Positions 9,753 through 54,483 are shown, numbered from the stretch's first letter. The stretch: DNA of 55,260 nucleotides from an uncultured bacterium (GCA_964635255.1 CAZWOY010000001.1:1-55260), one strand, 5' to 3'. The notes: generated from the letters alone by a model not told the origin. A program made the numbers and translations.

Positions 9753-9807
9753 AATTCACCTGCAGCAGTGAGATAAGCGGTCGATTAATTGCCAGAACAT
9801 TTTTATA

Positions 9808-11007: not shown

Positions 11008-11037
11008 ATCAACTCTTTAATTAACAGTACTATAATC

Positions 11038-12738: not shown

Positions 12739-13893
12739 TCAAGCAATGCTGGATCGTACAGATATTCCAATTTTGTATAGAACTGTTATGATCCCGGCTC
12801 CGAAAGCATAAACCATCAATGCGATCATCACTTCCGGAAATGTTGGCATGTATTCTGTCACCGTTCCCAGAGGAGACGGCACGAATCCTGTTACGACCAT
12901 TCCCATGCCCTTGTCGATCCAGATGGACAAGAACGTTATCACAGCCGTAAAAGCCAAAATCGATTCATTCCGGCGAGTTTTTGGATTTAGAAGCAGGAAC
13001 AGGGACGCCACCGCCAAAATCACGGAAATCCAAATCCAGGGAACTAAGGCGCTCTTACCCTCGATTCCCAAATACATATACTTGAAATGAAGCGTATGTT
13101 CGGGGATGTTGCTGTAAATCGCCGTAAATAATTCCATCAGGATTAGGAAAACGTTGATGGTCATCGCATAAGTCACAATTATCGCCAACTTCTGCACCGG
13201 CTCTTTTCCGACCTTGAAATCGCTTATTTTCCTCAGCAGCAGGCACATGATTATCAACAGCGAAGGACCGGATGCGAAAGCTGACGCGAGAAAGCGCGGA
13301 GCCAGCACAGCCGTCATCCAGAACGGACGCGCTGCGAGTCCTGAATATAAAAACGCCGTAACGGTGTGAATGCTGACCGCCCAGGGGATGGAAATGTAAA
13401 TGAACGGCTTAATCCATTTCGGCGGCGGGATCGATTTTTTCTCTGCGTGCAGGGTTGCGTTGCTGATAAGGACGTTGAGAACGAGATAGCCGCCGAGAGC
13501 GATCGTATCCCAGAACATCAGCGAATGAGGCGACGGATGCAGAAACAGATTCATTCCCCGATAGGGCTGCCCCAAATCGACAGCGATAAACGCCACGCAC
13601 ATAACGCAGGCGCCGACTGCCAAAAATTCGCCTAAGATGGTTAGTTTGCCAAACTCCTTATAATTGTGAAGATAGTATGGTAAAACCACCATAACGGCTG
13701 ATGCGGCGACTCCAACCATGAATGTAAACTGTGCGATATAAAAACCCCAGGTTACATCCCGGCTTAAACCGGTTATTCCCAAACCGACATTAAACTGTCT
13801 TACATAAAATGCAAAACCGATAAAAAAGATAATCGCCAGCGCGATAATCCATGACCAATAGTTTTTATTTCCAGTTAATGCTTTTTCTAACAT
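12739..13893 (-). CDS. dsrP: DsrP, NrfD/PsrC-like integral membrane quinone-interacting subunit
   Basis: 384 aa with about 10 predicted TM helices, in the last position of a dsrMKJOP array. Confidence 0.8.
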   Translation of the reverse strand: MLEKALTGNKNYWSWIIALAIIFFIGFAFYVRQFNVGLGITGLSRDVTWGFYIAQFTFMVGVAASAVMVVLPYYLHNYKEFGKLTILGEFLAVGACVMCVAFIAVDLGQPYRGMNLFLHPSPHSLMFWDTIALGGYLVLNVLISNATLHAEKKSIPPPKWIKPFIYISIPWAVSIHTVTAFLYSGLAARPFWMTAVLAPRFLASAFASGPSLLIIMCLLLRKISDFKVGKEPVQKLAIIVTYAMTINVFLILMELFTAIYSNIPEHTLHFKYMYLGIEGKSALVPWIWISVILAVASLFLLLNPKTRRNESILAFTAVITFLSIWIDKGMGMVVTGFVPSPLGTVTEYMPTFPEVMIALMVYAFGAGIITVLYKIGISVRSSIA

Positions 13894-13901
13894 TTTTTAC
13901 C

Positions 13902-14684
13902 TCACACTATATAGTAGATTTGAGGTTGCGTGCCCAGGGACGTTTTCCTGCGAATCGTAAAATTATCTGTAATTAATTCGCGCACTTTCGATTCGCTGTC
14001 TTCCAGATCGCCGAAAGTCAAAGCGCCGGCTTCACAAGCTTCAACGCATGCAGGCTGAAGACCTCGTGAAATTCTCTCTTCGCAGAAAGTGCATTTTTCG
14101 ACCACGCCTCTCATTCGAGTCGGGAAATCGGGATCGATCGAATCCAACAGTGGGCGAGGATTCTTCCAGTTAAAACTGCGAGCGCCGTAAGGACATCCAA
14201 CTATACAATAGCGACAGCCGATGCAACGGTGCCAATCCATCATAACAATGCCGTCCTCGCGCCGCCAAGTGGCTTCCGTCGGACATACCTTTGTACAGGG
14301 TGGATTTTCGCAGTGGTTGCACAGCATAAGAACCGGACCGTGTTCTTGTTCGCGGCTCTCTTTGCCGAGAATCTCTTCCAATACAGGATTTCCGAGTTCA
14401 TGGAAAGCATGATGGAAAGTATCCTTCCATATCCACTTTATTTCGTCTTTAGAATTTTCGATTTTAGGAACGTTGTGCGTTTCATGGCAGGCGTCTATGC
14501 ACTTTGTACAATTATCCTGTTCGAGGCATTTATTAAGATCGACAACCATCGCCCACCTTTTGCCTCCCATAGCGCGTGGATCATCCATAAATTCATCCGC
14601 CGTCAACTCCATCGCTGGGCGCAGAGTAAATCCTGCGACGCCAAGGCCGGCTAACTTGATAAATTTTCGCCTGTCTATACCCAT
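13902..14684 (-). CDS. dsrO: DsrO, periplasmic ferredoxin-like 4Fe-4S subunit
   Basis: Start set at MGIDRRKFIKLAGLG (a twin-arginine signal), whose ATG overlaps the dsrJ stop by 1 nt. Multiple CxxCxxCxxxCP clusters. Confidence 0.8.
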   Translation of the reverse strand: MGIDRRKFIKLAGLGVAGFTLRPAMELTADEFMDDPRAMGGKRWAMVVDLNKCLEQDNCTKCIDACHETHNVPKIENSKDEIKWIWKDTFHHAFHELGNPVLEEILGKESREQEHGPVLMLCNHCENPPCTKVCPTEATWRREDGIVMMDWHRCIGCRYCIVGCPYGARSFNWKNPRPLLDSIDPDFPTRMRGVVEKCTFCEERISRGLQPACVEACEAGALTFGDLEDSESKVRELITDNFTIRRKTSLGTQPQIYYIV

Positions 14685-15100
14685 TACTTTACCTCCTCGG
14701 GTGTAGTATGACAACTCCAGCAATATGGATCGACGCCGGCGTAATTATGGCATCTATCGCAAAAGTTGGCTTTGCTCTGGTGACAGTCGAGGCAGCTTTT
14801 CGACATCCCGCGCGTGTGGACATAATCGCTCACATTCGACAGGCTCATATTGTGTTTCTTGCCTTCGATTCCGACATATATGCGCTTGCCGTCGCGAACG
14901 ACTTTATCTCGCCACTCATCAAGAACGTCCATGTGCGAAGTGCGCATATATTTGGCGTCCTCTACGCATGGTCCCCGTTGAGCTTTTTCCAGTTCGGGCG
15001 CTCCCGCCGCGCTTCCGCTGGCAAAATTATACCAGATCGGAAAAGTGAAGATAATCAGAAAGATGATTATCCCGACTAATACTTTTCCGGTATCATGCAT
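14684..15100 (-). CDS. dsrJ: DsrJ, membrane-anchored triheme cytochrome c
   Basis: N-terminal TM helix plus three CxxCH motifs (CLDCH, CDRCH, CWSCH). Confidence 0.85.
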   Translation of the reverse strand: MHDTGKVLVGIIIFLIIFTFPIWYNFASGSAAGAPELEKAQRGPCVEDAKYMRTSHMDVLDEWRDKVVRDGKRIYVGIEGKKHNMSLSNVSDYVHTRGMSKSCLDCHQSKANFCDRCHNYAGVDPYCWSCHTTPEEVK

Positions 15101-16712
15101 CCTGTATTTCCTCCTCTTTAACGAATGGATTGCCCCGCATGTCGGTGCGATCTTCTTTCTCGCCCTTCATAATCAGCGCGTTGCCCACAAGTTCATGAAT
15201 TCCGCATACCTCAACTTCCGGCACCCAGAATTCCATCAGCGGAGGCAATGTCGCTTTATCGATTGCGCATATACAGCATAAGACATTTACGCCGTGCTTA
15301 TCATGCACATGTTTCACTGCATTAGCGCGCGGCATGCCGCCTCGCATTCTCATCTCAAAGTTCTCATCCGTGCCGAGTCCAGACCCCGATCCACAACAGA
15401 ACGTTTGTTCCCGGATCGTATTTTCCGGCATTTCGTGGAACTTGTTGCATACGCTGTTGATGCAGTATCGAGGTTCTTCGAGCAAGCCCATTGCGCGAGA
15501 CGGATTGCAGGAATCGTGGAACGTGACGTTCCATTGGTCGTTGCGGCTTTTATCTAAATTGAGTTTGCCGTTCTTAATCAGGTCTGCGGTGAATTCGCAG
15601 ATATGAGTCATCTTCGTTGATTTTGCATTATCAAAAACCGTTCCGGTGACTGGCGACTTCGGAACTTCGAGAAAATCTGCGGGACCGTTCAACGTATCCA
15701 TATATTGATGAAGCACCCGCCACATGTGGCCGCACTCGCCGCCAAGGATCCATTTAACGCCCAATCGCTTCGCTTCCGCGTAAATTTTAGCATTAAGACG
15801 TTTCATCATTTCATGGGAATGAAACAGCCCGAAATTTCCGCCTTCGGATGCGAAAGAACTGAATGTATAATCCAGTCCGATTTCATGAAACAAAGCCATA
15901 TAGCCTAAGAAGCCATAATAATGAGGATCGGCGAAATAGTCAGCCGACGGCACTACGAATAATATCTCTGCGCCCTTCTTATTGATCGGAGCATCGACTT
16001 TAATGCCGGTAATGTCATGCAGGTCGTCCATGGCAAATTCGACGCTGTCTTGAAAGCCGTGAGGCTGGATTCCCAAGTGGTTGCCGGTTCGAAAACAGTT
16101 CGCCGCCGGAGTCGTAACCCAATCGATTCCAATGCCGATCTCCTGCATGATTTCACGGGCGATCATCGTGATCTCCGCGGTGTCGACGCCATACGGGCAG
16201 AAAACCGAGCAGCGGCGGCATTCCGTACACTGATAGAAATAAAAGAACCATTCTTTCAGCACGTCGTAAGTAAGTTCGCGCGCGCCGACCATTTCGCCCA
16301 TCAGCTTGCCGGCTAATGTATATTTCTTGCGATAAATCGACCGGAACAATTCCGCGCGCAGAACCGGCATGTTTTTCGGATCGCCGGAACCGATAAAGAA
16401 ATGGCATTTATCCGCGCATGCGCCGCACCTTACGCAAATGTCCATAAAAATCTTAAGCGACCGGAATCGATCCAATCTTACCCGGAACGCCTCGAACAAA
16501 ATCTCCTGCCAGTTTTCGGGGAGCTGCCAATCGTCGTCCGTCGGCTGCCATTTCCGCGGGTAGGGCAGTTCCAAATAAGCTTGCGACTTCGGCGTCGCCG
16601 CATAATTATACGCGCCTTTTTTAAACTCGACTTTCGGATCCGTCCATTTCTTTCGCGGCGGCTTGAAATCTATTTGCGCAACCTTTTCAGGTTTAACTTG
16701 TTGTTCTGACAC
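15093..16712 (-). CDS. dsrK: DsrK, HdrD-like catalytic Fe-S subunit
   Basis: CVRCGACADKC and CTECRRCSVFCPYG clusters, plus CCG-domain signatures (FCCGSGSG). Confidence 0.85.
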   Translation of the reverse strand: MSEQQVKPEKVAQIDFKPPRKKWTDPKVEFKKGAYNYAATPKSQAYLELPYPRKWQPTDDDWQLPENWQEILFEAFRVRLDRFRSLKIFMDICVRCGACADKCHFFIGSGDPKNMPVLRAELFRSIYRKKYTLAGKLMGEMVGARELTYDVLKEWFFYFYQCTECRRCSVFCPYGVDTAEITMIAREIMQEIGIGIDWVTTPAANCFRTGNHLGIQPHGFQDSVEFAMDDLHDITGIKVDAPINKKGAEILFVVPSADYFADPHYYGFLGYMALFHEIGLDYTFSSFASEGGNFGLFHSHEMMKRLNAKIYAEAKRLGVKWILGGECGHMWRVLHQYMDTLNGPADFLEVPKSPVTGTVFDNAKSTKMTHICEFTADLIKNGKLNLDKSRNDQWNVTFHDSCNPSRAMGLLEEPRYCINSVCNKFHEMPENTIREQTFCCGSGSGLGTDENFEMRMRGGMPRANAVKHVHDKHGVNVLCCICAIDKATLPPLMEFWVPEVEVCGIHELVGNALIMKGEKEDRTDMRGNPFVKEEEIQDA

Positions 16713-16714
16713 AG

Positions 16715-17725
16715 CTATTTCTTCTCCTTCTCATTATCCTTTTCCAAAGGCATTCCCGCATCGCGCATAAGATCGCGAAACTCATCTTCATACTCCTCAT
16801 AAGTATGCGTTTTAACATCGTAATTCCATGGATTCTCATGCCGTTTGATACGGTTATCATTGACCATGTTTCTGGTCGGACTCATGAAGATTCCACCCAT
16901 GTGCATCAATTTGCTGAAAGGGAAATATATCAGCAAAACGCAAACGAGAAAGAGATGCGTAAAAAACAGCGATCCTATTCCTTCAGGTATGGTTGGCTGA
17001 AATGTTAACAATCCCATCGCCATTTCCTTGACGCTGACGAGATCGATTTTCGTGAAATATCTCATGAAAATTCCGGTGATTGCGATACCTAAAATCAGAA
17101 ATAAAGGGAAATAGTCTGTCAGCATCGACATGTATCGCAATTTCGGATCGATGATCCGCCTTAAAAACAAGTAAGTAACAGCGATTAATATGACGGCGTC
17201 GGTCATAAAAATAATCGGAAGACCTACTTGTAGAAAACCATCGACGAATTCTACCGCTTTAACAAATCCCGGCGTTGGATCGACAAATAGTTTAAAATGG
17301 CGAATAAAAATTATCAGAAATGAATAATGAAAAGCTAATCCGGCAGCCCATAACCATTTTGTGGAACCATAAACAATTTTAGGTCCATCCTTTAATTCGG
17401 ATCGGGTGTTTCTGAATAGAGATCGAAAAAAGAAAATCTCAAAAAACATCCTGCCGAGCAATCCACGTGTATTGCTTGGACTTTCCAGATTGTTTTGCTT
17501 GATCCAAGGCAGTGATTTTTCCTGGCCGCATGTTGTCGGAATCTTAAAGGGAACTGGCGACTTTGCCCAGTTGATTATCCTCAGTAAAAATCCGGCAAGG
17601 AAAACCAAAATAGCGATATATGGAATTATAACGCCAAAAAGAAACTGTATTCCTCCCGATTGCGCGCCAAAGAGCGGCAGCGCAACCAGAAGAAAAACAA
17701 GAACGAGAGATACGAAAATACTCAT
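16715..17725 (-). CDS. dsrM: DsrM, NarI-like diheme b membrane subunit
   Basis: Multi-TM protein immediately upstream of dsrK, with conserved His residues in the TM helices and a charged C-terminal tail. Confidence 0.8.
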   Translation of the reverse strand: MSIFVSLVLVFLLVALPLFGAQSGGIQFLFGVIIPYIAILVFLAGFLLRIINWAKSPVPFKIPTTCGQEKSLPWIKQNNLESPSNTRGLLGRMFFEIFFFRSLFRNTRSELKDGPKIVYGSTKWLWAAGLAFHYSFLIIFIRHFKLFVDPTPGFVKAVEFVDGFLQVGLPIIFMTDAVILIAVTYLFLRRIIDPKLRYMSMLTDYFPLFLILGIAITGIFMRYFTKIDLVSVKEMAMGLLTFQPTIPEGIGSLFFTHLFLVCVLLIYFPFSKLMHMGGIFMSPTRNMVNDNRIKRHENPWNYDVKTHTYEEYEDEFRDLMRDAGMPLEKDNEKEKK

Positions 17726-17746: not shown

Positions 17747-18292
17747 TTATTTTTCTTTGTTCTGGTCTGCATTTTCCTGTTCCGGTTGAACAAAATAGGG
17801 ATGACGTTCCAAAAGTCTGAAATAATACCTCTTCACTTGTTCGGCTTGAACCTTATATAGTTGCTCTTTACAGGAATCATAATGATTAAAGCATTGCATG
17901 CAAAGCGAATCTATCTGATACTGCAAATCGAAAAATTGCTCTAAGATTAAAACATTGTTAAGTCTGTCAGATATGTGATCCTTAATAATCCTCTTAAGCA
18001 GAAAGAGAAAATCCGTCGCTTCGGACGGTTTAAAATCCTGCACTGATCGGATGCGCGTAATATTTTCCACAGCCGAATCAGCTTCTTCTTTTCCGGCGGC
18101 GCCGCTGAGAAAATCAAAAATTCTCTCGATGCTTTCCGCAATACCAACGCCAACCGGATTTGAAAACCGATTTTTCTGACGGTCAAAAAAGTTCACGGAT
18201 TCGCTCGGATATGCCTCCAAAATGCGGTTTTTCCAAGAGTTGAGCAACCTGGACTTATCCGCTCTAAGAATTTCCTGTAAATTCATCCCCAA
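17747..18292 (-). CDS. dsrT: DsrT-like protein (RsbRD N-terminal-domain type)
   Basis: Its position directly upstream of dsrM is the classical dsrT slot. The N-terminal pattern W..RILEAYPSES..FF..QKNRFSNPVG resembles the RsbRD_N domain. Confidence 0.5.
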   Translation of the reverse strand: MGMNLQEILRADKSRLLNSWKNRILEAYPSESVNFFDRQKNRFSNPVGVGIAESIERIFDFLSGAAGKEEADSAVENITRIRSVQDFKPSEATDFLFLLKRIIKDHISDRLNNVLILEQFFDLQYQIDSLCMQCFNHYDSCKEQLYKVQAEQVKRYYFRLLERHPYFVQPEQENADQNKEK

Positions 18293-18416
18293 CCAAATCC
18301 AAAAACTTTGCGCTGTTTTTCACAAATACCTTGCTTATGAATATAACAGCAGATATTAATTCTGACTGACTTTGTTCCAAATCAAACACAAAGAATGATT
18401 TTATGGAACTTATCAA

Positions 18417-18457
18417 ATCGGCGAGTGATATCCTGAAATAGACAACCACTCGCCGAT
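18417..18457 (-). terminator. hairpin (11-bp stem) 28 nt downstream of the dsrC stop; possible attenuator or mRNA stabiliser
   Basis: ATCGGCGAGTG-19 nt-CACTCGCCGAT. On the minus strand it is followed only by TTTGAT, which is a weak U-tract. Confidence 0.4.
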
Positions 18458-18484
18458 CGATTTAAATAGTGTTTGAAAATAGAA

Positions 18485-18802
18485 TCAGACGCAGCCAGTC
18501 GGCTTCGCCAAACCGGCAACTTTACAAGCGCCTTTAGCTGGACCGGAAGGGAACAGGTCGTAGATTTGCTTTAAAGAAAATCCGGTTTCCTTGCAAAGCT
18601 TGCGGATCATCGGTGCGATCCCGAATTTTTGGTAGTATTCGCGAAGGTAATTGACGACTTTCCAGTGATCTTCGGAAAGGTCATCTACGCCTTCGGTACT
18701 TGCCAAAGCCAAAGCTACGCGTTCGTTCCATTCATCCGGTTCCTGCATAAATCCGTCTTCATCGACTTCGATGTTAACATCGTTCCATTCAAATTGTGCC
18801 AT
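18485..18802 (-). CDS. dsrC: DsrC, sulfur-carrier / trisulfide-forming substrate of DsrAB
   Basis: 105 aa. The C-terminal arm ...GACKVAGLAKPTGCV carries both conserved cysteines. Confidence 0.9.
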   Translation of the reverse strand: MAQFEWNDVNIEVDEDGFMQEPDEWNERVALALASTEGVDDLSEDHWKVVNYLREYYQKFGIAPMIRKLCKETGFSLKQIYDLFPSGPAKGACKVAGLAKPTGCV

Positions 18803-18854: not shown

Positions 18855-20540
18855 TTACTTCATTTCAATGTAACCGCACGGGCAGGCGTCTTTACATTTG
18901 CTGCAACCGTTACAAAATTCCATTTTAAATGTATATGGATCGCCAGGCTTTAACGGTTTCTTGATTGCATTGTCCTGACAATAGCTCCAGCAGGTGCCGC
19001 AATCGAAACATGAACCGCAGCTCATACATCTGCTGGCTTCCTCGACAACCTGATCCTGCGTCAAGGTTGACTTAATTTCAGCCCAGGGATTTTCAAAACG
19101 TTCATCGACAGCCATTTCCTCGCAATGCTGTCTCATCTTCTTTTCATAATAAGACAAAACGAGCCGGTCGGCTTTAATGACTTCAAGTTTCTTCTTCGTT
19201 TCAGGCTCCTCGCCGCGGAACCGAGCATCCATCGTCTCTGCAGCCAGTCTTCCCTGAGCGATGGCAATTGTAACCAAGCCAAGATCGACTGTATCGCCGC
19301 CTGCGTAAGTTTTATCGACCGGCGTCACGCCTTTTTCATCGGCTTTTACCCAGTCTTTGCCTTCGTGAAGATCGTCTAAGCCTTCAAAATCCGGCTCTTG
19401 CGAAATAGCCGGAATTACGCAGGTAACATCTATGTCGAAAGTGTCGCCTTCAATCGGAACAGGACGGCGGCGTCCCGATGAATCAGGTTCGCCAAGCTCC
19501 ATCTGCTGGCATTTCATGCGGACAGCATTGCCGTCTTTGGTCTCAATTTCAATCGGAGCGGCGAGAAAATGGAAGATAATTCCCTCTTCCTCGGCGCCTA
19601 CGATTTCTTCTTCAATCGCCGGCATTTCGTTGCGCGTGCGGCGATAAAGAATTGTAACTTCTTTTGCGCCGATACGCAGGGCAACGCGAGCCGCGTCGAT
19701 CGCTGTGTCTCCCCCGCCGATTACGACGACTTTATCGCCGGTTTCGACGGGCTTGCCGTTGTTGACAAGATTGAGGAACTCTACGCCGGTATAAACATTT
19801 TCAGCATCCTCGCCTTCAACTCTAAGTCCTTTGCCCTTGTGAGCGCCGATGCCGACGAAAACGGCGTCGTAGTCTTTTTGCACCTGTTCGTAAGGTAGGT
19901 CCTTACCGACTGCGACGTTGGTTTTTAATTCGACGCCTAGATCCAGAATCTTCTGAATTTCGCCGTCAAGTATATCGCGCGGCAGACGATAAGCGGGGAT
20001 GCCGTACCTGAGCATACCGCCGGCTTTATCGAACGCTTCGAAAATTGTAACTCCATATCCGCGTTTTGCCAGATGATACGCACAGCTCAAACCAGCGGGT
20101 CCGGCGCCGATAACGGCGACCTTTTCGGATCTCTTTTCATCGGTAACTTTCTTAAAAGCTAAATTCTGCTCCAGCCCCCAGTCGCCGACAAATCGTTCGA
20201 TATTATTAATACCGACTGCTTCATCCCGTTCGTTCCGGTTGCATCCTTCCTCACAAGGATGAGGGCAAACCCTGCCGCAAACTGCAGGCAAAGGATTTTT
20301 TTCCGCTATAATCTCCCAGGCTTCCTTGAACGCCTGTTCAATCGGCTTTTCGTACTTTTCCGCCTGAGCGATTGTCATCAGCATCTTACGTATTTCGGTG
20401 CCTTGCGGACACGAATCCATACATGGAGCCAATTTCTCCAAATGGTATGGACGAAGAGGACTGGTTTCCACTCCCGAAGATCCGGAAGCGCCTGATGATT
20501 TTATGTCAAGCTTCTTTTTTGGTTTTCTCTTAAGCGCCAT
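18855..20540 (-). CDS. dsrL: DsrL-type NAD(P)H-dependent iron-sulfur flavoprotein (GltD-like core plus C-terminal 2x[4Fe-4S] ferredoxin domain)
   Basis: N-terminal CGRVCPHPCEEGC, two dinucleotide folds ([26 protein letters not shown]), and a C-terminal CMSCGSCFDCGTC ... CNGCSKCKDACPCG. It is located between dsrN and dsrC. Confidence 0.75.
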   Translation of the reverse strand: MALKRKPKKKLDIKSSGASGSSGVETSPLRPYHLEKLAPCMDSCPQGTEIRKMLMTIAQAEKYEKPIEQAFKEAWEIIAEKNPLPAVCGRVCPHPCEEGCNRNERDEAVGINNIERFVGDWGLEQNLAFKKVTDEKRSEKVAVIGAGPAGLSCAYHLAKRGYGVTIFEAFDKAGGMLRYGIPAYRLPRDILDGEIQKILDLGVELKTNVAVGKDLPYEQVQKDYDAVFVGIGAHKGKGLRVEGEDAENVYTGVEFLNLVNNGKPVETGDKVVVIGGGDTAIDAARVALRIGAKEVTILYRRTRNEMPAIEEEIVGAEEEGIIFHFLAAPIEIETKDGNAVRMKCQQMELGEPDSSGRRRPVPIEGDTFDIDVTCVIPAISQEPDFEGLDDLHEGKDWVKADEKGVTPVDKTYAGGDTVDLGLVTIAIAQGRLAAETMDARFRGEEPETKKKLEVIKADRLVLSYYEKKMRQHCEEMAVDERFENPWAEIKSTLTQDQVVEEASRCMSCGSCFDCGTCWSYCQDNAIKKPLKPGDPYTFKMEFCNGCSKCKDACPCGYIEMK

Positions 20541-20627
20541 GTTCTTTTTACTCTGTTAACGAAAACTCTCTTTTTCTCTTATGATACAACGATCCTCCTC
20601 GACTTTTAATAAATAGGTTCCTTTTAA

Positions 20628-22037
20628 CTATTGATCCTTTCTTTTCAATTTTGTTCGATTAAAATTTTCCGTTGCATATATTATACCATTTCGCCACACA
20701 TCCGTTCCAATTGCATGTACATGTAGATAAGCCGCCAAAACGTTGCGCTTTATTAACCCGTCTCTTTGCAATCCTAATCCTCTGCCTCTTTTTACTGAAA
20801 AAGCAGTACTGATTGTTTCATCAAAATTTACCAAGTTGGAATAATGAAACTCATGACCCCTGATTCGCGTACCCGTTTCATAAAATGGATTCGCTCTATC
20901 GACCTCGACCTCGACATATCCATGTCCCGCCGGTTTCCTGCTAATCGAAACGTCATGTTCGAAAACGCCCGCCATGGGAAATTGCTTATCATTCCAAATT
21001 ATCCTCCTGCATAAAAACATCAACCCGCCGCATTCGGCGTAAATCGGCAATCCGTTTTCAGCGTGTCTGCGCACAGAGTCTAAAAATCCTTTGTTATCTG
21101 ACAGCTTAGCTCCATGCGTCTCAGGAAATCCTCCACCGATATACAGCGCGTCGATATCGGGAAGCTCCCTTAATTCAAATGGATTAACCGGTATTAACTC
21201 GACGCTGTCGCTCTCAAGACTTTCGAGATTCTCCGGATAGTAAAAAGTAAACGCCGATCCGGTAAAATAACCGATCTTTAATCTACGCTTAATTACTGTA
21301 TCTGACGTAAGTTTCGTATTATCGCCAAGATCTTTTTTTAGTCCGGGAGCGCTGTGACAAGCGGCGGATATTTTACTAAGATCGACGCTGTCGCGAATCA
21401 ATTTTCCGGCCTCCTCGATCGCTTTAACCGCCTGTTGATTTTCCTCAGGCGTTATTAATCCCAAATGTCTGCCCGGCAGCAGATCGGTTTTGTTTCGATA
21501 TACCGCGCCAAGCGCCGGAATTCCGGTTTCGTTTTCGATAGCGCCGCGTATAACCGATTCCTGTCGTTTGGTGGCGACGTTATTTAGAATGACGCCGCAG
21601 AGATTTACATTTTTGTCAAAGAGCTTGATTCCTAAAAGGATCGCCGCTGCGGTTCTGGTCACTTTCACAACCGGCAGAACAAGCGCCACCGGACATTTTA
21701 GCAACTTGGCCAGTTCTGCAGACGAGTGAGTTCCCCTTGAATCTTCGCCGTCGTGCAGTCCGCGATTTGCCTCGATGATATTAATTCCATCATTAGTGCA
21801 AAATCTGTGGAATGAACTAACGACATTCTCAGCGCCCATCATCCACGTATCGAGATTTCTGGCGTGGTTTCCCGCAGCAAGTTTCAGCCAAGCGGGATCA
21901 ATATAGTCCGGTCCTTTCTTAAAAGGAACCACTGGAACCCCCTCGCAACGCCAGGCATTTATTAATCCTAACGTTACGAGGGTTTTTCCGCTGTCGCCTC
22001 CCGTCCCGGCAATTATCAAGCGGGGCGGATTGTACAC
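20628..22037 (-). CDS. dsrN: DsrN, cobyrinic-acid a,c-diamide synthase-like siroheme amidase
   Basis: N-terminal IIAGTGGDSGKT P-loop and a C-terminal glutamine amidotransferase region (YAECGGLMFL). Confidence 0.8.
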   Translation of the reverse strand: MYNPPRLIIAGTGGDSGKTLVTLGLINAWRCEGVPVVPFKKGPDYIDPAWLKLAAGNHARNLDTWMMGAENVVSSFHRFCTNDGINIIEANRGLHDGEDSRGTHSSAELAKLLKCPVALVLPVVKVTRTAAAILLGIKLFDKNVNLCGVILNNVATKRQESVIRGAIENETGIPALGAVYRNKTDLLPGRHLGLITPEENQQAVKAIEEAGKLIRDSVDLSKISAACHSAPGLKKDLGDNTKLTSDTVIKRRLKIGYFTGSAFTFYYPENLESLESDSVELIPVNPFELRELPDIDALYIGGGFPETHGAKLSDNKGFLDSVRRHAENGLPIYAECGGLMFLCRRIIWNDKQFPMAGVFEHDVSISRKPAGHGYVEVEVDRANPFYETGTRIRGHEFHYSNLVNFDETISTAFSVKRGRGLGLQRDGLIKRNVLAAYLHVHAIGTDVWRNGIIYATENFNRTKLKRKDQ

Positions 22038-22057
22038 AGTTTTACTCGATTCCAGGT

Positions 22058-22303
22058 TTAGTTTGCGGCGCCTTCTTTATGAGGCAGTTCTACAAAGCTG
22101 CCTCCGAAATAGGTATAGACGCAGCGACCGCTGTCAACGAGATACTTAACCGCGTCTTTGGCTAATTTCTTATCGACGTCGGGATACATCTCCCTTACGG
22201 CTTTTACGAGGTCGCCGGATTTGTATTTTTTCTGTCCGGTTCCCTCTTTTACCAACTTGTACATTACGTCTGCAAGTTCATCGCGTGTCGGTTGATCAGC
22301 CAT
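22058..22303 (-). CDS. dsrD: DsrD, small winged-helix protein of reductive dsr operons
   Basis: 81 aa directly after dsrB, K-rich, with a C-terminal ...YTYFGGSFVELP similar to the YWSSGSTTMYGL region of Desulfovibrio DsrD. Confidence 0.75.
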   Translation of the reverse strand: MADQPTRDELADVMYKLVKEGTGQKKYKSGDLVKAVREMYPDVDKKLAKDAVKYLVDSGRCVYTYFGGSFVELPHKEGAAN

Positions 22304-22330: not shown

Positions 22331-23413
22331 CTAAAACCGCAGGTGCGCAGACGTCTTATAGGTCAATCCTGCATGTTTAAAGTCATCGATATGTTCTTTC
22401 TGGAATTCGACGCCGGTCATCTCAAAGAATCTTGGCCAACCGATTCGTTCGATCCATTCGCCTACTCTTTCGTAAGGATGCGCATTTTCTTTCCAGATAT
22501 TAACAATATTTTTGACCGCATCGACGACCTCTGGCCACCGCGGTGGATTATTTGGAATGTAAGGAATTGCCAATTTTGAGAACATCGGCTCCATGCGAGC
22601 GTTCGATACTTTTCCGCCGACCCAGATCGAAACGCCGTCAGTTACCGGATCGTTCAGTGGCATTGCCGGGCAAACCGTATAGCAGTTCGCGCAATACATG
22701 CAGCGTTCTTCCAAAACTTCGACGGACGGATTGCCATCGACTTCCGCCGGACGAATTGCCGCTGTCGGGCAGGAAGCGGTCACGTTTGGAATTTCGCAGA
22801 CTTTGCGAAGATTCCCGTGATCTACCACAGGGGCGCGGCGGTGAATTCCTAAAATAGCAATATCCGAGCAGTGTACGGCGCCGCACATATTCAGACAGCA
22901 AGCCAATGCAATTCTGATTTTGCCGGGTAAACGGGTATTGGTGAATTCATCGATCAATTCATCCATCACCGCTTTAACGATGCCGGATGCGTCAGTTGCC
23001 GCCGAGTGGCAGTGCACCCAACCTTGTGTATGAACGATATTCGAAATCGAATTCGCTACACCGCCAACAGGATGCCCTAAGCTCTCAATCGCTTTCTTTA
23101 TGGGCTGTAAATTTTCTTTCTTGGTGGTCAGCATCTCCACGTTATTACGACTTGTAAAACGGAAATATCCGTCACAATACTTATCGGCAATGTCGCAGAG
23201 TTGCCTGATTTTCTGAATCGACATAATCCGCGCCGAAGCAGCGCGAATTGTGTAAATCGAATCGCCCGATTCCGCAACGTGCATATATATGCCCGGTTCA
23301 AGAATCTCATGGTAATCCCACTTGCCGTAGTTTTCTTTAATTACGGGCGGGAGATTTAATTCATAATGAGGCGGACCAATGTCCGTAATCCTTTGTGCAG
23401 GTTCTGCAGCCAT
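22331..23413 (-). CDS. dsrB: dissimilatory sulfite reductase beta subunit
   Basis: Siroheme/4Fe-4S Cys motifs ([23 protein letters not shown]) and an inserted ferredoxin domain (CPTAAI...[12 protein letters not shown]). Confidence 0.9.
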
Positions 23414-23474: not shown

Positions 23475-24689
23475 TTAATCTTCCTCTGCCTCGCCTAACT
23501 CGTAGAACACATAAGGATTCGTACGAGGATGAGCGACCATTTCCGCTTCGGGTTCAAGCCCGATGGCGTCGAGGAAGTTGCCCAAACCGATGCGCTGAAT
23601 GAATTCGCCAACGCGTTCGCGGTTCTTGCCTTCTTCGCCCCAGAGATCCCAAATCTCATCGACGAGTTCTTTGAGATCTTCAAAATTAGGATCATCGTCG
23701 TTATATGGCGGATCCATCTGCATGAAGGGAATCAAAACGCTCGAAAGCATTGCGCCTTCAAGAATAGGAGCTTTCGCGCCCAACAGAATAGTAGCTCCGC
23801 GGTCTTTACCGGGTTTCAGCGCGCGATGCATAACGTTAATACAATGCATACAGCGCGTACAATTCCGGTTGTCGATGTTCAACTGTTTGCCGTCCCATTC
23901 CATACACTGGGTCGGGCAGCGGTTGATTACGTCGCGTCCAATATTCAAGCCTTCATCCACATACTGTCCAACACGATCCTGATCGATTTGAATATCATCG
24001 CGCCAGGTTCCGATAATCGACATATCGGCGCGGGCAATCGACGCTACGCAATCGTTAGGGCAGCCCGCCATCTTAAACTTAAACTTGTAAGGGAAAAACG
24101 GACGGTGCAGCTCGTCTTGATATTGCATCGTCAAGTCGTATGTTACCCTTAAAGTATCGTACATCGCCCATTCGCAGCGTGCCGGTCCATTACAGCAGGA
24201 AGGCGTGCGCAATACCGATCCCGAGCCGCCAAGGTCAAAGCCAAGTTTTGTTAACTCAGCAAAGGTCGGTTCGAGTTCATCGGTAGTAGTGCCTAAAAAT
24301 ACGATGTCTCCAGTCGATCCGTGCATATTGGTCAAGCCGGATCCATGTTCTTCCCAAATATCGCACAGCTTACGCAATACATCGGTTGTGTAAAACCATC
24401 CAGCGGGCTGGTTAATACGTAGCGTGTGAAAATGCGAAATCGCCGGATAATCCTCGGGAATATCGACATAACGCCCAATGACGCCGCCGCCATATCCCAT
24501 GACGCCTACGATGCCGCCATGTTTCCAGTGTCCGATTCTCTCATTGTAAGAACGTTCCAATACGCCCAATAATGCATTGGACATATCATTTGTTTGCGCC
24601 GCAGCTTCAATTTCCTTTACAAAGCTGGGCCAGGCCCCTTTCTTTAACTCCGAAAGTTTTCCAGTGGCCTCTCTTTTTACATCAGCCAT
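23475..24689 (-). CDS. dsrA: dissimilatory sulfite reductase alpha subunit
   Basis: 404 aa with [21 protein letters not shown] and the ferredoxin-domain [10 protein letters not shown]. Paired with dsrB. Confidence 0.9.
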
Positions 24690-28283: not shown

Positions 28284-28346
28284 TTAACAAAAAACCTCTT
28301 ATCCCGGTTAACAAAATTATCTGAATTTAAAGTCTAAAAATCAAAT

Positions 28347-29492: not shown

Positions 29493-29501
29493 TCTTGTAT
29501 C

Positions 29502-30326: not shown

Positions 30327-30383
30327 CCACTCTCGATTTTTTAAATTGTTTTGCGATCTAAATACTCTTGTTCGATCAATCCA

Positions 30384-30991: not shown

Positions 30992-32908
30992 TTAGCCGCC
31001 TAACAACTCATGGTCTTCAGGGCACGGGAAAATGTGCTTCACAGGTCGCTTAATCATTTCCCATTCGGCTTTGTTCGGATCGTATTTACAATTAGCAAAT
31101 ACCAGCCAATCTTTGTTGTTCATCGCCGGGGTATCCGCGCGGAAATAATATCCGGGCCAACGGGTTTCTTCGCGGAACAGAATCGTGCGAACATGAGCTT
31201 CCGCCTGCCACATACGGTGGACGTTCTCCCAGGCGCGCATTAATTCATGCAGATCTTCCGCAGCCAGCTTCTTCGAGTCTTCAGCGAGAACGCCTAACAG
31301 CTCGAGACCTTTCTCAAGATTGGACTTGCTGGTCTTAAATTGAGAAGAAACTCCGCCTGCATATTCGTCCATGATCTTCTGGAGTCGGAACATGAACATT
31401 TTCGGGCGGATGTAATTTGCGTTGATGTGAGGATCGGTCGTCTCTTTCGAGTGTTTATCGAACAGATCCATCGGAGCAAGGATTTCTTCCTTTATTGCTT
31501 CGATATCTCCATCGAAAGATACATCTTCCGGATGATCGACAACCCACTTTACAGCGGCTTTGCCTGCGATACGGCCTTCAGCGTGCGAACCCGATGAGAA
31601 CTTATGCGAGGAAGCGCCGGAAGCGTCGCCTGCGCAGAACAGTCCATCGACGGTTGACATCTGCGGGTAATCCCAGTAGTATTCGCCTTTGGTGTCATCG
31701 TTCTGCAGGTCGGCAGGTCCGCTAACCCATGCGCCGGAAGCGCCGGAGTGCGAACCGATGAAGTACGGCTCGGCGGCGGCGATTTCGGAGGGCTTTTCTT
31801 CGGGAGCCACATCGGAGGCGGCCCAGAGAACCGCCTGAGAAATGGTCATATCGAGGAAGTCTTCCCAGGCTTCGCTTTCGAGTTCCTTCATCTTCTTCTT
31901 GTAGGCTTTCTTGTCGTCTTTGTACTTTTCAGCCAGGTTGGCGATGGCTTCTTCAGTTCTCATGAAGATGGGTCCCTTGCCTTCCATGACGTCAAGCATC
32001 ATCAGCCAGTTGCGGAGGTTAGCCGGAACGGGCTTTACGCTGCCGTAAGGTTTCCAGTTCTCGAGCTCAGGGCGGCGGGTTTCCATATAGGCTTCGCCGA
32101 GTCCGTTGGTTGCGCGGGACTTGAACAGCAGGAACCAGGCGCCGACAGGACCGTAGGCGTCCTTGAAGCGCACCGGAATGAAGCGAACTTCCTGGCAGGT
32201 CATTTCAGCGCCGGCTTTCAGCGTGAAATATGCAGAGGAACCGGAGTTCCACGGCGGATACCAGGCGCGTCCAAGACCTTCGCCGGATGAACGCGGCTTA
32301 AAGACATGAACAGCTCCGCCCATTACAGCGATAACTGCTTTCGCCGTAAAGACGTAGAATTTGTTTTCGCGAACGGAAAATCCGACTGCGCCAACGCAGC
32401 GGTTGCCGTTCATCAACGGACCGACGATGAAAACGCGTTCATAAATATTGTCGATTCCGAGTGCGTTTTTGGCTGCTTCAGCAACGATGACCTTATAAGA
32501 TTCACCATTGATCATAAGCTGCCAGCGACCTTCGTGAACATAACCGCCATCTTCAGCTTTCCAAATTGGGAGTCCCCATTTTTCGAAAAGGTGAACGGAT
32601 GAATCGACGTGGCGGGCGATATTCGCCACCAAGTCTTCGCGGGTTATGCCCATTAAGTCGTTGCGTACGTATTCAACGTAATCTTTGACGGTATTCTGAC
32701 CGTCTTTGATTCCCACATACTGGTTAATAGCGGAAAGACCCATAGCAACGGCGCCTGAGCGGTCCACAGCGGCCTTATCGACCATTGTAACCTGAACGTC
32801 GTGCTTCTTTGCCCAGTAGGCTGCTTCCACGGCTGCGCCGCAAGCTGCCATACCGCCACCGAGTATGAGAAGATCGGTTTTTACTTCTACAGTTTCAAAA
32901 TTCGGCAT
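30992..32908 (-). CDS. aprA: adenylylsulfate (APS) reductase alpha subunit
   Basis: 638 aa with N-terminal FAD motif DLLILGGGMAACGAA. Fumarate-reductase-family flavoprotein directly after aprB. Confidence 0.9.
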   Translation of the reverse strand: MPNFETVEVKTDLLILGGGMAACGAAVEAAYWAKKHDVQVTMVDKAAVDRSGAVAMGLSAINQYVGIKDGQNTVKDYVEYVRNDLMGITREDLVANIARHVDSSVHLFEKWGLPIWKAEDGGYVHEGRWQLMINGESYKVIVAEAAKNALGIDNIYERVFIVGPLMNGNRCVGAVGFSVRENKFYVFTAKAVIAVMGGAVHVFKPRSSGEGLGRAWYPPWNSGSSAYFTLKAGAEMTCQEVRFIPVRFKDAYGPVGAWFLLFKSRATNGLGEAYMETRRPELENWKPYGSVKPVPANLRNWLMMLDVMEGKGPIFMRTEEAIANLAEKYKDDKKAYKKKMKELESEAWEDFLDMTISQAVLWAASDVAPEEKPSEIAAAEPYFIGSHSGASGAWVSGPADLQNDDTKGEYYWDYPQMSTVDGLFCAGDASGASSHKFSSGSHAEGRIAGKAAVKWVVDHPEDVSFDGDIEAIKEEILAPMDLFDKHSKETTDPHINANYIRPKMFMFRLQKIMDEYAGGVSSQFKTSKSNLEKGLELLGVLAEDSKKLAAEDLHELMRAWENVHRMWQAEAHVRTILFREETRWPGYYFRADTPAMNNKDWLVFANCKYDPNKAEWEMIKRPVKHIFPCPEDHELLGG

Positions 32909-32919
32909 GACGGCTCCTC

Positions 32920-33360
32920 CTACTTAAGGGTGTATAATTCATCTAAACCACATGAACCTGGTTCTGTGAACAGAACCGGGCTGTCAAGATCGTCGGCGCC
33001 GGTCTCCCAACCGCCGTCGGGTACTGCTGAACCTTCTGCAGTTGTACGGATCGGGAACTTGAATCTTTTCAGGTTTCCATTGCGGAACTTAACCGTCCAC
33101 ATAATGGAATCCGTACTGCGCATTGGCGTTACCATCGCACCCAGCGGAACGAAATCTGCGTATCCGCGAACTTCGACTGCATCCTGCGGGCAAATCTTCA
33201 CGCAGTTGTAGCACTCCCAGCACATCTCCGGCTCAATGTTGGTTGCCTTCTCGGTCTTTTTATTCAAGACCATGAGATCATTGGGGCAGATATACTGGCA
33301 TGCTGTTTTGTCCAATGCTTTGCATCCGTCGCATTTCTCGGGATTTACATAGCTTGGCAT
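32920..33360 (-). CDS. aprB: adenylylsulfate reductase beta subunit
   Basis: MPSYVNPEKCDGCKALDKTACQYICP and CWECYNCVKICP clusters, with a C-terminal tail typical of AprB. Confidence 0.9.
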   Translation of the reverse strand: MPSYVNPEKCDGCKALDKTACQYICPNDLMVLNKKTEKATNIEPEMCWECYNCVKICPQDAVEVRGYADFVPLGAMVTPMRSTDSIMWTVKFRNGNLKRFKFPIRTTAEGSAVPDGGWETGADDLDSPVLFTEPGSCGLDELYTLK

Positions 33361-33431
33361 CTTACCTCCTGATTATATATGAACCTGGTTTTGGGATTTT
33401 CGTTTTCCAAAACACCTTTTTGTTTTCGATT

Positions 33432-34664
33432 TTACTTGGCGTCGCCGGTTGCGTGGCCATGAAGCTTAACTTCAACCTTCTCGGATAAACCGGCGTAATA
33501 ATCCATTAATATCTTTAACACTTCGGGACGGCTGAATTCTTTCGGAATCTCATCCGTTTGACCTTCGCTCAGCATCTTGCGCAGCTTCGTGCCGGAAAGG
33601 AAAAGCCTTTCTTCCTTGCCATGCGGACAGGTCTTCATCGAAGCCATGCCGGCGCAAGTGTAGCAGTAGAACGTCCAGTCGATCGGCAGGGGCTTCAGTT
33701 GCAGAGCGCCTTCCCACAGTTCATGGAAAATATTCTGCGCGTCGAACGGACCGTAATAGTCGCCTACGCCTGCATGATCGCGGCCTACGATCAGATGCGA
33801 GCATCCGAAGTTTTGACGGAACACGGCGTGCAGCAAAGCCTCGCGCGGTCCTGCGTAGCGCATATCCAGCGGATAGCCGCCAGTTACGACCGAGTCTTTG
33901 ACAAAGTAGTTTTCAACCAGCGTGTTGATGCACTTTACGCGAACATCGGCGGGAATATCGCCGGGTTTCAGCTTGCCGACCAATTGATGAATGTAAAGTC
34001 CGTCGGAAACTTCCAGAGCGATCTTCGCAAGGTATTCATGCGAACGGTGCATCGGATTGCGAAGCTGTAAAGCTGCGATTGTTTTCCAGCCTTTCGCTTC
34101 GAATGTCGCTCTCGATTCCGCCGGACGCTGGTATAATTTTGCGAATTCCTTCGGGAAAATACTTTCCGACAATACTTTCACCGGGCCGCCGAGGTTGACG
34201 TCTTTCTGCGCCATGACCATTTTAACGCCCGGATGTTCGATATCGTCCGTGGTATAAACGTGCTTGCACTCGAATTTTTTATCGATGGCGTACTTTTCCT
34301 CTACCTTCATGGTAGCCATTATCTCGCCATCTTCGTCATTGATCAGCGCAATCTCGTCGCCGTCTTTGAGCGAATCGGCAAATGCTTTGTCAACGCTTAC
34401 AGTAATTGGGATAGGCCAGAATGTGCCATCGGTCATTTTCATGTCCTGGCAAACGCCTTTCCAATCGTCGTGACCCATGAAGCCCTTGAGCGGCGTAAAA
34501 CCGCCGATCCCAAGCATAATTAAATCACCGGCTTCGCGTGAAGTAATGCGAGCCTGGGGCAGACTTTCTGCACGTTTGCGTTCCGCGGCAAGTTCATCTC
34601 CCTCTAAAAGGAGAGGCATTAATTCATCTGCGCCATGCGGTGGAATTAATGTTGATTCTGCCAT
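33432..34664 (-). CDS. sat: sulfate adenylyltransferase (ATP sulfurylase)
   Basis: [11 protein letters not shown] and VGRDHAGVG motifs. Confidence 0.9.
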
Positions 34665-34765
34665 TTTGAAATCTCCTCTATTAAAAAACTTAGTTTAAAT
34701 TACTTCTCTGTTTCTAAATGCCAAAATGCGACGAACTTTTTGTCCGCCGCACCGGCATTGCCTCC

Positions 34766-53637: not shown

Positions 53638-54483
53638 TTACCGGATACCCTCTAATTTGCATTTATGGAGATAGCGATCTAATGCTTCCTTTTCCTGCGG
53701 CAGATAGGCTCTCTGGCGCAGCATCAGTTCATCGAAATCGACCAGATGACCGTCGAATTCCGGTCCATCGACGCAGACGAACTTCGTCTTGTCGCCAAGG
53801 CTAACGCGGCAGCCGCCGCACATGCCGGTGCCATCGACCATAACCGAATTCAGGCTGACCTGAGTCGGAATCTCGTATTTTTTCGTCAAATTGGAAACGG
53901 CTTTCATCATAACGACCGGTCCGATCGCCAGGCACAGATCGATTTTCAAACCATCATTGATCAGGTTTTGGAGCATATCGGTCACAAAACCGTGCAATCC
54001 ATAGGATCCATCATCGGTTGTGACATGCAGTCCATCTGAAATCTCCGCCATTTCCTTTTCGAGAATCAACAGATCCTTCGACCGAGCGCCGATGATCGAG
54101 TATATTTTATTACCGGCTTCTTTCATGGCTTTAGCGATCGGATAGACCGGAGCCACGCCGATGCCGCCGCCGATGCAGACGACATTTCCAAAGTTCTCGA
54201 TGTGCGTCGCCCTGCCCAGCGGTCCAACAACGTCGATTAAGTTTTCTCCTTCCTTCAAATCTCCCATGTGGTAAGTCGATTTGCCGACTTCCTGGAAAAT
54301 CAAACGGATCGTTCCCGCTTCCGGGTTCGAATCGACGATCGTCAGCGGGATCCTTTCGCCGTCTTCGCTGACTCGCACCAGCACAAACTGACCGGCTTTA
54401 CGTTTTTTCGCAATCAGGGGCGCTTCGACGATATAGTCCTTGACGCCTTCCGACAGCGTTGTTTTCGATTGTATTTTATGCAT
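53638..54483 (-). CDS. nfnA: NfnA / PyrK-like FAD + [2Fe-2S] small subunit (SudB-like)
   Basis: FNR-like fold (RIPLTIV, GPLG, CIGGGIGVAP) and a C-terminal CGGCRV...CVDGP cluster. Confidence 0.8.
   Translation of the reverse strand: MHKIQSKTTLSEGVKDYIVEAPLIAKKRKAGQFVLVRVSEDGERIPLTIVDSNPEAGTIRLIFQEVGKSTYHMGDLKEGENLIDVVGPLGRATHIENFGNVVCIGGGIGVAPVYPIAKAMKEAGNKIYSIIGARSKDLLILEKEMAEISDGLHVTTDDGSYGLHGFVTDMLQNLINDGLKIDLCLAIGPVVMMKAVSNLTKKYEIPTQVSLNSVMVDGTGMCGGCRVSLGDKTKFVCVDGPEFDGHLVDFDELMLRQRAYLPQEKEALDRYLHKCKLEGIR

Follow-up and report, generated by a model that had tools for sequence, protein, structure and literature searches.

Gene order around dsrL

The window examined here, a stretch of 55,260 nucleotides (nt) of DNA from an uncultured bacterium (GCA_964635255.1 CAZWOY010000001.1:1-55260), carries on its minus strand an uninterrupted same-strand run of sulfur-metabolism genes. 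This report concerns one of them, dsrL, which encodes a protein of 561 amino acids (aa), together with the 81-aa open reading frame (ORF) found at the position of dsrD and the type of DsrAB encoded upstream. In order of transcription the run reads hppA-sat-aprBA-qmoCAB-dsrA-dsrB-(81 aa)-dsrN-dsrL-dsrC-dsrT-dsrMKJOP, with the following features:

30992..36886, minus strand: block of membrane pyrophosphatase, sat, aprB and aprA
36886-34766, minus strand: membrane pyrophosphatase (hppA)
34664-33432, minus strand: sat
33360-32920, minus strand: aprB
32908-30992, minus strand: aprA
29492-28347, minus strand: qmoC
28283-27015, minus strand: qmoA-like
27015-24754, minus strand: qmoB-like
23475..24689, minus strand: dsrA (TIGR02064, 559 bits)
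22331..23413, minus strand: dsrB (TIGR02066, 509 bits)
22058..22303, minus strand: 81-aa DsrD-position protein, predicted winged helix, divergent DsrD-like family
20628..22037, minus strand: dsrN (TIGR00379, 400 bits)
18855..20540, minus strand: dsrL, assigned below to type 2 (reductive subgroup), 561 aa (NF009410, 615 bits)
18485..18802, minus strand: dsrC, with both C-terminal functional cysteines, ending CKVAGLAKPTGCV
18412..18461, minus strand: hairpin directly 3' of dsrC (-27.8 kcal/mol)
17747..18292, minus strand: dsrT-position gene with an RsbRD_N domain, position kept in related loci
12739..17725, minus strand: dsrM, dsrK, dsrJ, dsrO and dsrP, all exceeding NCBIfam equivalog cut-offs

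An original prediction, made from the sequence alone, gave the coordinates and lengths of the 561-aa and 81-aa ORFs correctly and overlooked dsrN between them. Its statement that the window has sat-aprBA-qmo and lacks dsrEFH was borne out, with no DsrE/F/H-like ORF among the scanned window ORFs of at least 100 aa. The dsrA and dsrB genes lie 1.8-4.1 kb upstream of dsrL on the same strand, the 81-aa ORF starts 27 nt past the dsrB stop, and the intergenic gaps from dsrA through dsrC measure 20-87 nt. The single operon that had been proposed is a reasonable inference from the shared strand and these gaps, and a common transcript of dsrA, dsrB, the DsrD-like gene, dsrN, dsrL and dsrC is probable; a consensus scan for promoters and terminators gave no signal above shuffles. 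The hairpin after dsrC has a stem of about 16-17 base pairs (z -5.5; 0 of 200 shuffles were equally stable) and may be a terminator or attenuator dividing dsrABDNLC from dsrTMKJOP.

Architecture and identity of the 561-aa protein

The dsrL ORF is complete, and its ATG start aligns with homologues. The protein is divided as follows:

20163..20465, minus strand: N-terminal two-[4Fe-4S] domain, residues 26-126
19221..20129, minus strand: FAD domain, in which an NADP(H) domain is embedded, residues 138-440
19638..19646, minus strand: YRR motif, Tyr299-Arg300-Arg301, NADP(H)-preference signature of DsrL-2 (PMC7596348)
19029..19220, minus strand: short linker lacking the DsrL-1A extension, residues 441-504
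18858..19028, minus strand: C-terminal ferredoxin domain with two [4Fe-4S] clusters (Fer4_21/Fer4_7, E ~5e-4)

Pfam models matched Fer4_20 (dihydropyrimidine-dehydrogenase-type Fe-S) at residues 38-126 (E 6e-18) and Pyr_redox_2 at residues 140-430 (E 8e-26), the latter with a second dinucleotide fold embedded in it, and gave weak dicluster ferredoxin matches at residues 510-560. The dinucleotide motifs are GAGPAG at 145-150 (FAD) and GGGDTA at 275-280 (NAD(P)), and the C-terminal domain carries two Cys motifs, C511xxC514xxC517xxxC521 and C543xxC546xxC549xxxC553. The DsrL architecture that had been predicted was therefore found in all its parts: the Fer4_20 domain, two dinucleotide folds and two C-terminal Cys motifs.

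Conservation was assessed over 35 homologues of 61-77% identity, in which every Cys of the two C-terminal motifs is invariant. At the N-terminus, Ser27 and Arg30 stand at the positions of NfnB Cys39 and Cys42, a mapping made by the SxxR/C pattern and not by structure; Cys40, Cys44, Cys88, Cys92, Cys96 and Cys100 are present. S27, R30, C40, C44, C92, C96, C100 and YRR 299-301 are invariant in the same homologues, and C88 is at least 90% conserved. The linker measures about 64 aa by our own boundaries (441-504), compared to about 100 aa quoted with different boundaries by Loffler 2020 (PMC7596348).

An AlphaFold model built on the 35-homologue alignment had a predicted local distance difference test score (pLDDT) of 80-95 over the core and a poor one over the linker and C-terminal domain, as expected of a model without clusters. 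Foldseek searches with this model returned the NfnB-like modules of NfnABC, StnABC, NfnI and NfnAB as the best matches, including NfnB 4YLF_B at a target-normalised template modelling score (TMt) of 0.78, followed by GltD and dihydropyrimidine dehydrogenase; no solved DsrL structure was found among PDB entries by sequence search or Foldseek. The NfnB/NfnI-L and NfnABC/StnABC modules (4YLF_B, 5JCA_L, 9BOV_A, 9N5U_A, 8OH5_C) have the same Fe-S plus FAD/NADPH core fold as DsrL, 38-43% identity to it and a YRR-type NADPH site, and the alignment to NfnABC/Stn extends past the core into the linker and first Cys motif. Unlike NfnB, DsrL has Ser and Arg for two of the cluster ligands, a free-standing C-terminal ferredoxin domain and no adjacent NfnA.

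That the closest solved structures are Nfn/Stn subunits, and that databases name proteins of this kind only "FAD-dependent oxidoreductase" or "NAD(P)-binding protein", would suit a different view of the ORF: a GltD/NfnB-family enzyme, fused to a ferredoxin, that acts as a general NADPH:ferredoxin oxidoreductase and merely lies in a dsr cluster. The window itself holds an ordinary protein of that family, which speaks against it. This 495-aa paralog (52150-53637, minus strand) passes TIGR01316, the model for NfnB and homotetrameric GltA, with 628 bits, while the DsrL ORF fails it (332 bits; cut-off 471.75). The two are 41% identical, the paralog has no C-terminal extension, and it has an NfnA/SudB-type partner gene, whereas none adjoins dsrL. 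The pair is located as follows:

52150..54483, minus strand: NfnB/GltA-like (495 aa; TIGR01316, 628 bits) and NfnA/SudB-like (281 aa; NF004862, 418 bits) proteins

DsrL residues 456-513 (19002-19175, minus strand), comprising the linker end and the first Cys motif (…EEASRCMSCGSC), align to residues 17-75 of the paralog's N-terminus (…IEASRCIKCKKPSC) at a pairwise E of 0.002. The N-terminus of DsrL has lost that Cys motif and has SxxR instead, which hints at a duplicated or displaced cluster-binding segment.

For inclusion as DsrL, Loffler 2020 (PMC7596348) required a complete gene in a dsrAB organism, a five-part domain order and a location not beside pyruvate/ketoisovalerate:ferredoxin oxidoreductase genes. 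All three hold for the 561-aa ORF, whose neighbours are dsrN and dsrC, not pyruvate-oxidoreductase genes. Ser27 also agrees with the Ser or Thr reported at the NfnB Cys39 position of all DsrL (PMC7596348).

Gene context was surveyed in 55 related loci (numbered L001 and so on) from a scan of species-representative genomes. Every full-length locus with at least 52% identity and its upstream flank on the contig has the order (qmo)-dsrA-dsrB-small ORF-(dsrN)-dsrL-dsrC-(dsrT)-dsrMKJOP. These dsr-linked loci come from metagenome-assembled genomes (MAGs) labelled Acidobacteriota, Planctomycetota, Ignavibacteriaceae and others, and the slot of dsrL between dsrB/D/N and dsrC is kept in more than 15 genome loci from several phyla, a point against that other view. 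Proteins of L016-L018, 48-49% identical to the window DsrL, lie beside dsrAB without the small ORF. Other groups of loci, whose proteins are 36-49% identical, are without dsr neighbours; the two look-alikes examined lie beside porG-porA-porB (L023) and beside a pyruvate:ferredoxin oxidoreductase (PFOR) gene (L052, Chromatiales). The scan yielded no canonical DsrL of sulfur oxidisers; its matches in Chromatiales, Thiotrichales and Lewinellaceae are without dsr neighbours.

The pyruvate-oxidoreductase-linked fusions, which are the proteins excluded from DsrL by the third criterion of Loffler 2020 (PMC7596348), resemble DsrL in length, domain order, YRR and C-terminal Cys motifs and reach 49% identity. 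Because such look-alikes share the architecture at 36-49% identity, architecture and percent identity are insufficient for a DsrL call, and the porGAB/PFOR-linked proteins L023 and L052 in this respect favour a function outside the dsr pathway. They are set apart from DsrL by their porGAB/PFOR neighbours, by an N-terminal GSWR..P in place of the DsrL-specific SxxR, and by their position in a phylogeny. The full DsrL-like architecture with YRR and without dsr neighbours was seen in L021, L023, L026, L034, L035 (Desulfobacterota/Nitrospirota), L045, L047 and L052, and dsr-unlinked proteins of this kind are easily mis-annotated as DsrL by similarity.

A neighbour-joining tree of 102 sequences (200 bootstraps), made from 50%-identity cluster representatives with DsrL-like architecture, the context-labelled locus proteins and the window NfnB-like paralog as outgroup, placed all dsr-linked proteins in one clade with bootstrap 90. 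Proteins linked to pyruvate oxidoreductase, and proteins whose C-terminal ferredoxin motif is of the "CPR" kind, fall outside it. Judged from sequence, the 561-aa ORF is a genuine DsrL and not an ordinary GltD/NfnB/SudA protein, as the original prediction had it, and given that DsrL of Allochromatium vinosum copurifies with the oxidative-type DsrAB (rDsrAB) and that NADH-dependent sulfite reduction by the rDsrABL-1A complex has been seen in vitro, we consider a role unrelated to DsrAB very improbable.

Within the dsr-linked clade, the window DsrL belongs to a subclade (bootstrap 95) that includes sequences bearing the labels Ca. Hatepunaea, Calditrichaeota, Zixibacteria, Ignavibacteria or Planctomycetota, as well as L005, which is encoded on a ChocPot_Mid MAG contig and is 62% identical to the window protein over residues 24-561. 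A DsrL of that MAG (ROL58764) is listed under "proposed sulfate reduction" in the supplement of Loffler 2020 and shown in its Figure 3 as DsrL-2 with reductive DsrA (PMC7596348). The phylogeny thus recovered both a dsr-linked clade and a subclade containing the ChocPot DsrL-2, by neighbour-joining and without a named DsrL-1.

DsrL type, the DsrD-position protein and DsrAB

Published work divides DsrL into types and finds DsrL-2 in every organism with reductive DsrA (PMC7596348). At the NfnB Cys42 position, DsrL-1 and the DsrL-2 of rDsrA organisms have Cys, and the DsrL-2 of reductive-DsrA organisms have Arg; YRR is present in all DsrL-2 and explains the strict NADP(H) specificity of the Desulfurella amilsii enzyme; and DsrL-1A is distinguished by about 32 inserted aa in the NAD domain and by some 30 aa more of linker (PMC7596348). 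The window protein reads T-S27-P-L-R30-P at its N-terminus and Y299-R300-R301 in the NADP(H) domain, the DsrL-2 type of NAD(P)H motif, and has neither DsrL-1A extension, its NAD domain being 107 aa long as in NfnB-like proteins. Ser27, Arg30, YRR and the lack of extensions therefore point to DsrL-2 of the reductive subgroup, the DsrL-2C of Diao 2023. YRR alone was rejected as an identifier of DsrL-2, since NfnB-like and pyruvate-oxidoreductase-linked proteins carry it.

The window protein shares with A. vinosum DsrL-1A the overall architecture and, presumably, the role of serving a DsrAB-type sulfite reductase as its NAD(P)H-linked redox partner. By its published description, DsrL-1A has the NAD insertion of about 32 aa, the longer linker, Cys at the NfnB Cys42 position, no YRR and a preference for NADH, none of which applies to the window protein. 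The likeness to DsrL-2C, exemplified by D. amilsii DaDsrL-2, Ca. Sulfopaludibacter SbA3 and the ChocPot Bacteroidetes/Chlorobi MAG protein ROL58764, extends to domain order, Ser/Arg ligands, YRR, short NAD domain, short linker, all C-terminal Cys and a dsrAB-D-(N)-L-C context. It differs from these in coming from another lineage of the Fibrobacterota-Chlorobiota-Bacteroidota (FCB) group, and the enzymology is known from other lineages.

The published Cys/Arg contrast was reproduced in our alignment, in which the dsrD-less L016-L018 have S-x-K-C plus an insertion. In these three proteins Cys stands at the NfnB Cys42 position, the NAD(P) domain has an insertion of 20-30 aa and YRR is kept. The insertion resembles one described only for DsrL-1A, and L017 is a DsrL-2-like gene beside dsrAB with no dsrD. 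L018 represents the CG2-30-53-67 lineage, for which an rdsrABL-2 set has been described. L027 and L033 have YNK in place of YRR, the exception reported for Ca. Acidulodesulfobacterales (PMC7596348), and a small ORF of Ca. Acididesulfobacter shares 80% identity with theirs.

The original prediction took the 81-aa ORF to be DsrD, a marker of the reductive direction. Its position, size and winged-helix fold agree with this; its Pfam score and its similarity to the Desulfovibrio vulgaris protein do not. Pfam DsrD (PF08679) is the best match and stays below threshold (E 0.014; 16.1 bits, gathering threshold 24.2). The ORF belongs to a well-conserved family of 609 proteins in a database search, none of the 120 listed having a precomputed Pfam domain, with the conserved core GRCVYTYFGGSF(I/V)E(L/I)PHKEGAAN; 3 of 32 family members weakly touch the Pfam model. 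No DsrD was found among PDB matches in single-sequence and family-profile searches, hhalign against D. vulgaris DsrD (sequence identical to 1UCR) gave a probability of 1.3%, and a broader family hidden Markov model scored 1UCR at 5.9 bits, the level of decoys (6,544 decoys). When the most divergent family member was used as seed, a Desulfurella protein named DsrD by UniRef came up, and this one itself fails Pfam. A Desulfurella multipotens protein so named, likewise failing Pfam, shares 38% identity with the 81-aa window protein.

The structural model of the 81-aa protein is a confident winged helix (pLDDT 81) with H-H-H-beta-beta topology. DsrD 1WQ2 aligns to it with a TMt of 0.70, but only in 42nd place in a list of generic winged-helix proteins. 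D. vulgaris DsrD (1UCR/1WQ2) is alike in its position after dsrB, its length of about 80 aa, the winged-helix fold and a Y-x-x-x-G-(G/S) wing motif in register. It is unlike in having no significant sequence similarity and in its motif: YTYFGGSF occupies the alignment register of the YWSSGSTT of Desulfobacterota DsrD, which is itself not present. Close relatives of the 81-aa protein conserve a Cys, at which distant members have Leu, while canonical DsrD is described as Cys-free (PMC8794893). A small ORF occupies the dsrD position in every dsrAB-...-dsrL locus (more than 15 loci), and the core CVYTYFGGSF...PHKEGAAN was seen in the window protein and those of L001-L015, L027 and L033.

Acidobacterial orthologues have been called DsrD on conserved hydrophobic residues (Hausmann 2018, PMC6018796). 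DsrD is an allosteric activator of DsrAB, shown for the Archaeoglobus fulgidus and D. vulgaris proteins only, and is absent from sulfur oxidisers (PMC8794893). The family is treated as DsrD by the field, and its equivalence to the characterised activator is an assumption. As a more remote reading, the co-inherited winged-helix protein might serve DsrL-2 as a specific adaptor and not be an orthologue of DsrD.

The window DsrA shows 59% identity to the A. fulgidus and D. vulgaris enzymes (reductive, with solved structures), 65-72% to the DsrA proteins encoded in dsrABD(N)L loci and 50% to that of L017, which lacks the small ORF and has a Cys-type DsrL. In a DsrB-rooted tree, the L017 DsrA, the one putative oxidative sequence used, branches first and window DsrA is nested among reductive sequences with bootstrap 54. 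The DsrA of Ignavibacteria and Zixibacteria, the nearest groups, fall in the reductive branch (PMC7596348). Window DsrAB is likely of reductive type on these comparisons, which include that single putative oxidative sequence. With dsrL close to dsrAB and a DsrD-like gene, the locus partly resembles the setting proposed for DsrL-2C.

Electron flow, host lineage and neighbouring genes

From the identity, architecture, signatures, clade and conserved synteny observed above, we conclude, with a probability of roughly 0.8, that the ORF is a DsrL-2 of the reductive-DsrAB subgroup (DsrL-2C) that passes electrons from NADPH to DsrAB in sulfite reduction. NADPH would bind the embedded Rossmann domain at the YRR motif and reduce FAD, from which electrons would pass to the two N-terminal [4Fe-4S] clusters, one with Ser/Arg ligands, then to the tethered C-terminal two-cluster ferredoxin domain and on to DsrAB. 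DsrAB and DsrC would convert sulfite to the DsrC trisulfide, which DsrMKJOP would reduce with electrons from the quinol pool. That the enzyme is specific for NADPH, hands electrons to DsrAB and works reductively is suggested by the published enzymology of other DsrL: DsrL-1A of A. vinosum and DsrL-2 of D. amilsii both contain [4Fe-4S] clusters, and DaDsrL-2 used NADP(H) only when assayed with methylthiazolyldiphenyl-tetrazolium bromide (MTT) and methyl viologen. The direct pyridine-nucleotide entry into DsrAB foreseen in the original prediction corresponds to the accepted reading of DsrL-2. More speculatively, the NfnAB-like pair at 52150-54483 could provide DsrL-2 with NADPH made from NADH and reduced ferredoxin.

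The combination of dsrL, dsrD, reductive dsrAB and sat-aprBA-qmoABC was first described in 2018 in peatland Acidobacteria, with a discussion of its unclear direction (PMC6018796). Loffler 2020, Ferreira 2022 and Diao 2023 have since read dsrD, DsrL-2 and reductive dsrAB together as reductive or disproportionating, DsrL-2 being the supplier of NADPH electrons to DsrAB (PMC7596348, PMC8794893, PMC10591310). Finding DsrL-2C beside reductive dsrAB and dsrD has been put forward as a sign of reductive metabolism, Zixibacteria and AABM5-125-24 (equivalent to Ca. Electryoneota) being among the lineages concerned (PMC10591310). The earlier view that the direction cannot be read from the gene list is therefore outdated since 2020-2023, given the DsrL types (PMC7596348, PMC10591310) and the YRR and Arg30 of this protein.

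The same DsrL-2 could in principle work mainly in an oxidative or disproportionating metabolism, taking electrons from DsrAB as DsrC-bound sulfur is oxidised and reducing NADP+, with sat-apr-qmo-dsr run in reverse. DsrL-2 does occur in established sulfur oxidisers with rDsrAB, NAD(P)H:acceptor activity has been measured in both directions, Hausmann 2018 raised this option for the acidobacterial orthologues (PMC6018796), Ferreira 2022 linked DsrAB, DsrD and DsrL to disproportionators (PMC8794893), and Electryoneota relatives encode SoeABC and high-affinity oxidases. We regard this as unlikely for the window, in which residue 30 is Arg, the state tied to reductive DsrA, and not Cys, a DsrD-position gene is present, dsrEFH is lacking and DsrA groups with reductive enzymes. 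The NADPH pool is moreover normally kept reduced, making NADP+ a poor acceptor, and the indicator proposed by Diao 2023 (PMC10591310) points the other way. On 55 kb of sequence, disproportionation or reversal keeps a low probability.

A bolder alternative is that DsrL-2 is a flavin-based electron-bifurcating or confurcating module, not a simple NADPH-to-DsrAB wire. The idea arises because its closest solved relatives are all bifurcating NfnB-type subunits (NfnAB, NfnABC, StnABC), and because the NADPH/FAD site and two low-potential clusters with Ser/Arg ligands are kept and a tethered ferredoxin domain is added. The NADPH electron pair would then be split, one electron going downhill to DsrAB (sulfite/DsrC) and one uphill to ferredoxin, and sulfite reduction would gain an energy-coupling site; we hold this to be quite improbable.

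Several points weigh against DsrL-2C as the donor of NADPH electrons to DsrAB. The internal nodes of the neighbour-joining DsrL tree are weak, and the choice of type 2 over type 1 draws on motifs and two literature-anchored references, with no named DsrL-1 in the tree. YRR marks the use of NADP(H), not DsrL-2 as such. On sequence, the 81-aa protein is not demonstrably homologous to characterised DsrD, and the single putative oxidative sequence in the DsrAB-type test left support modest. The DaDsrL-2 assays used artificial acceptors only, and transfer from DsrL-2 to reductive DsrAB was not found in the literature consulted. Finally, the view covers 55 kb of a genome, and dsrEFH, sox, sqr or soeABC could lie elsewhere in it.

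The observation of dsrL in this window is correct and ordinary, in that both the combination and its interpretation are already published, and it leaves current understanding unchanged. For biology, it adds one more FCB-group (Calditrichota/Electryoneota-like) lineage with NADPH as the likely electron donor to DsrAB. For annotation there are two modest by-products. Look-alikes of up to 49% identity share the full architecture, and DsrL is separated from these pyruvate-oxidoreductase-linked proteins by gene context, the N-terminal SxxR/C motif and phylogeny. The "DsrD" that serves as reductive marker in DsrL-2 lineages is a divergent family undetectable by the standard DsrD model.

The best DsrL matches are in Calditrichota-labelled MAGs (74-77% identity), and the nearest named relative is Ca. 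Hatepunaea meridiana (Electryoneota; 71% identity, sister group with bootstrap 99), which published work takes to be a sulfate reducer that is facultatively anaerobic. The genes sat, qmo, aprAB and dsrAB have been reported from bins of Calditrichaeota, and Calditrichota are absent from the DsrL lists of Loffler 2020 (PMC7596348) and Diao 2023 (PMC10591310). On the plus strand at 37424-43375, the window encodes a secreted, gingipain-like peptidase C25 of 1983 aa that carries carboxypeptidase-regulatory domains and a C-terminal sorting domain for type IX secretion, which is consistent with an FCB-group organism. The host is probably an FCB-group (Calditrichota/Electryoneota-like) sulfate reducer.

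Four genes on the minus strand directly follow dsrP (7574-12714). The first encodes a 558-aa CoA-disulfide-reductase-like flavoprotein with a C-terminal rhodanese domain that resembles NADH-dependent persulfide reductase; the others are hemA, a gene with the N-terminal domain of precorrin-2 dehydrogenase/siroheme synthase, and a cobA-hemD fusion, so that siroheme synthesis and the dsr cluster form one co-directional block. At the other end of the dsr genes (region 24754-30776, minus strand), the qmo order just upstream of dsrA is C-A-B, and that of related loci is qmoA-B-C before dsrA. Between aprA and qmoC this region holds two unassigned ORFs, a 104-aa ORF without a family and a 311-aa ORF with a CxxCxxCC domain (PF03692). 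Beyond the sulfur genes, a 343-aa protein at 43686-44717 (minus strand) barely reaches the reductive dehalogenase subfamily cut-off (TIGR02486, 162.1 compared to 160.35 bits), and there are two probable toxin-antitoxin pairs, DUF433 with DUF5615/PIN-like at 45090-45748 (minus strand) and HEPN with a nucleotidyltransferase at 51046-51728 (plus strand).

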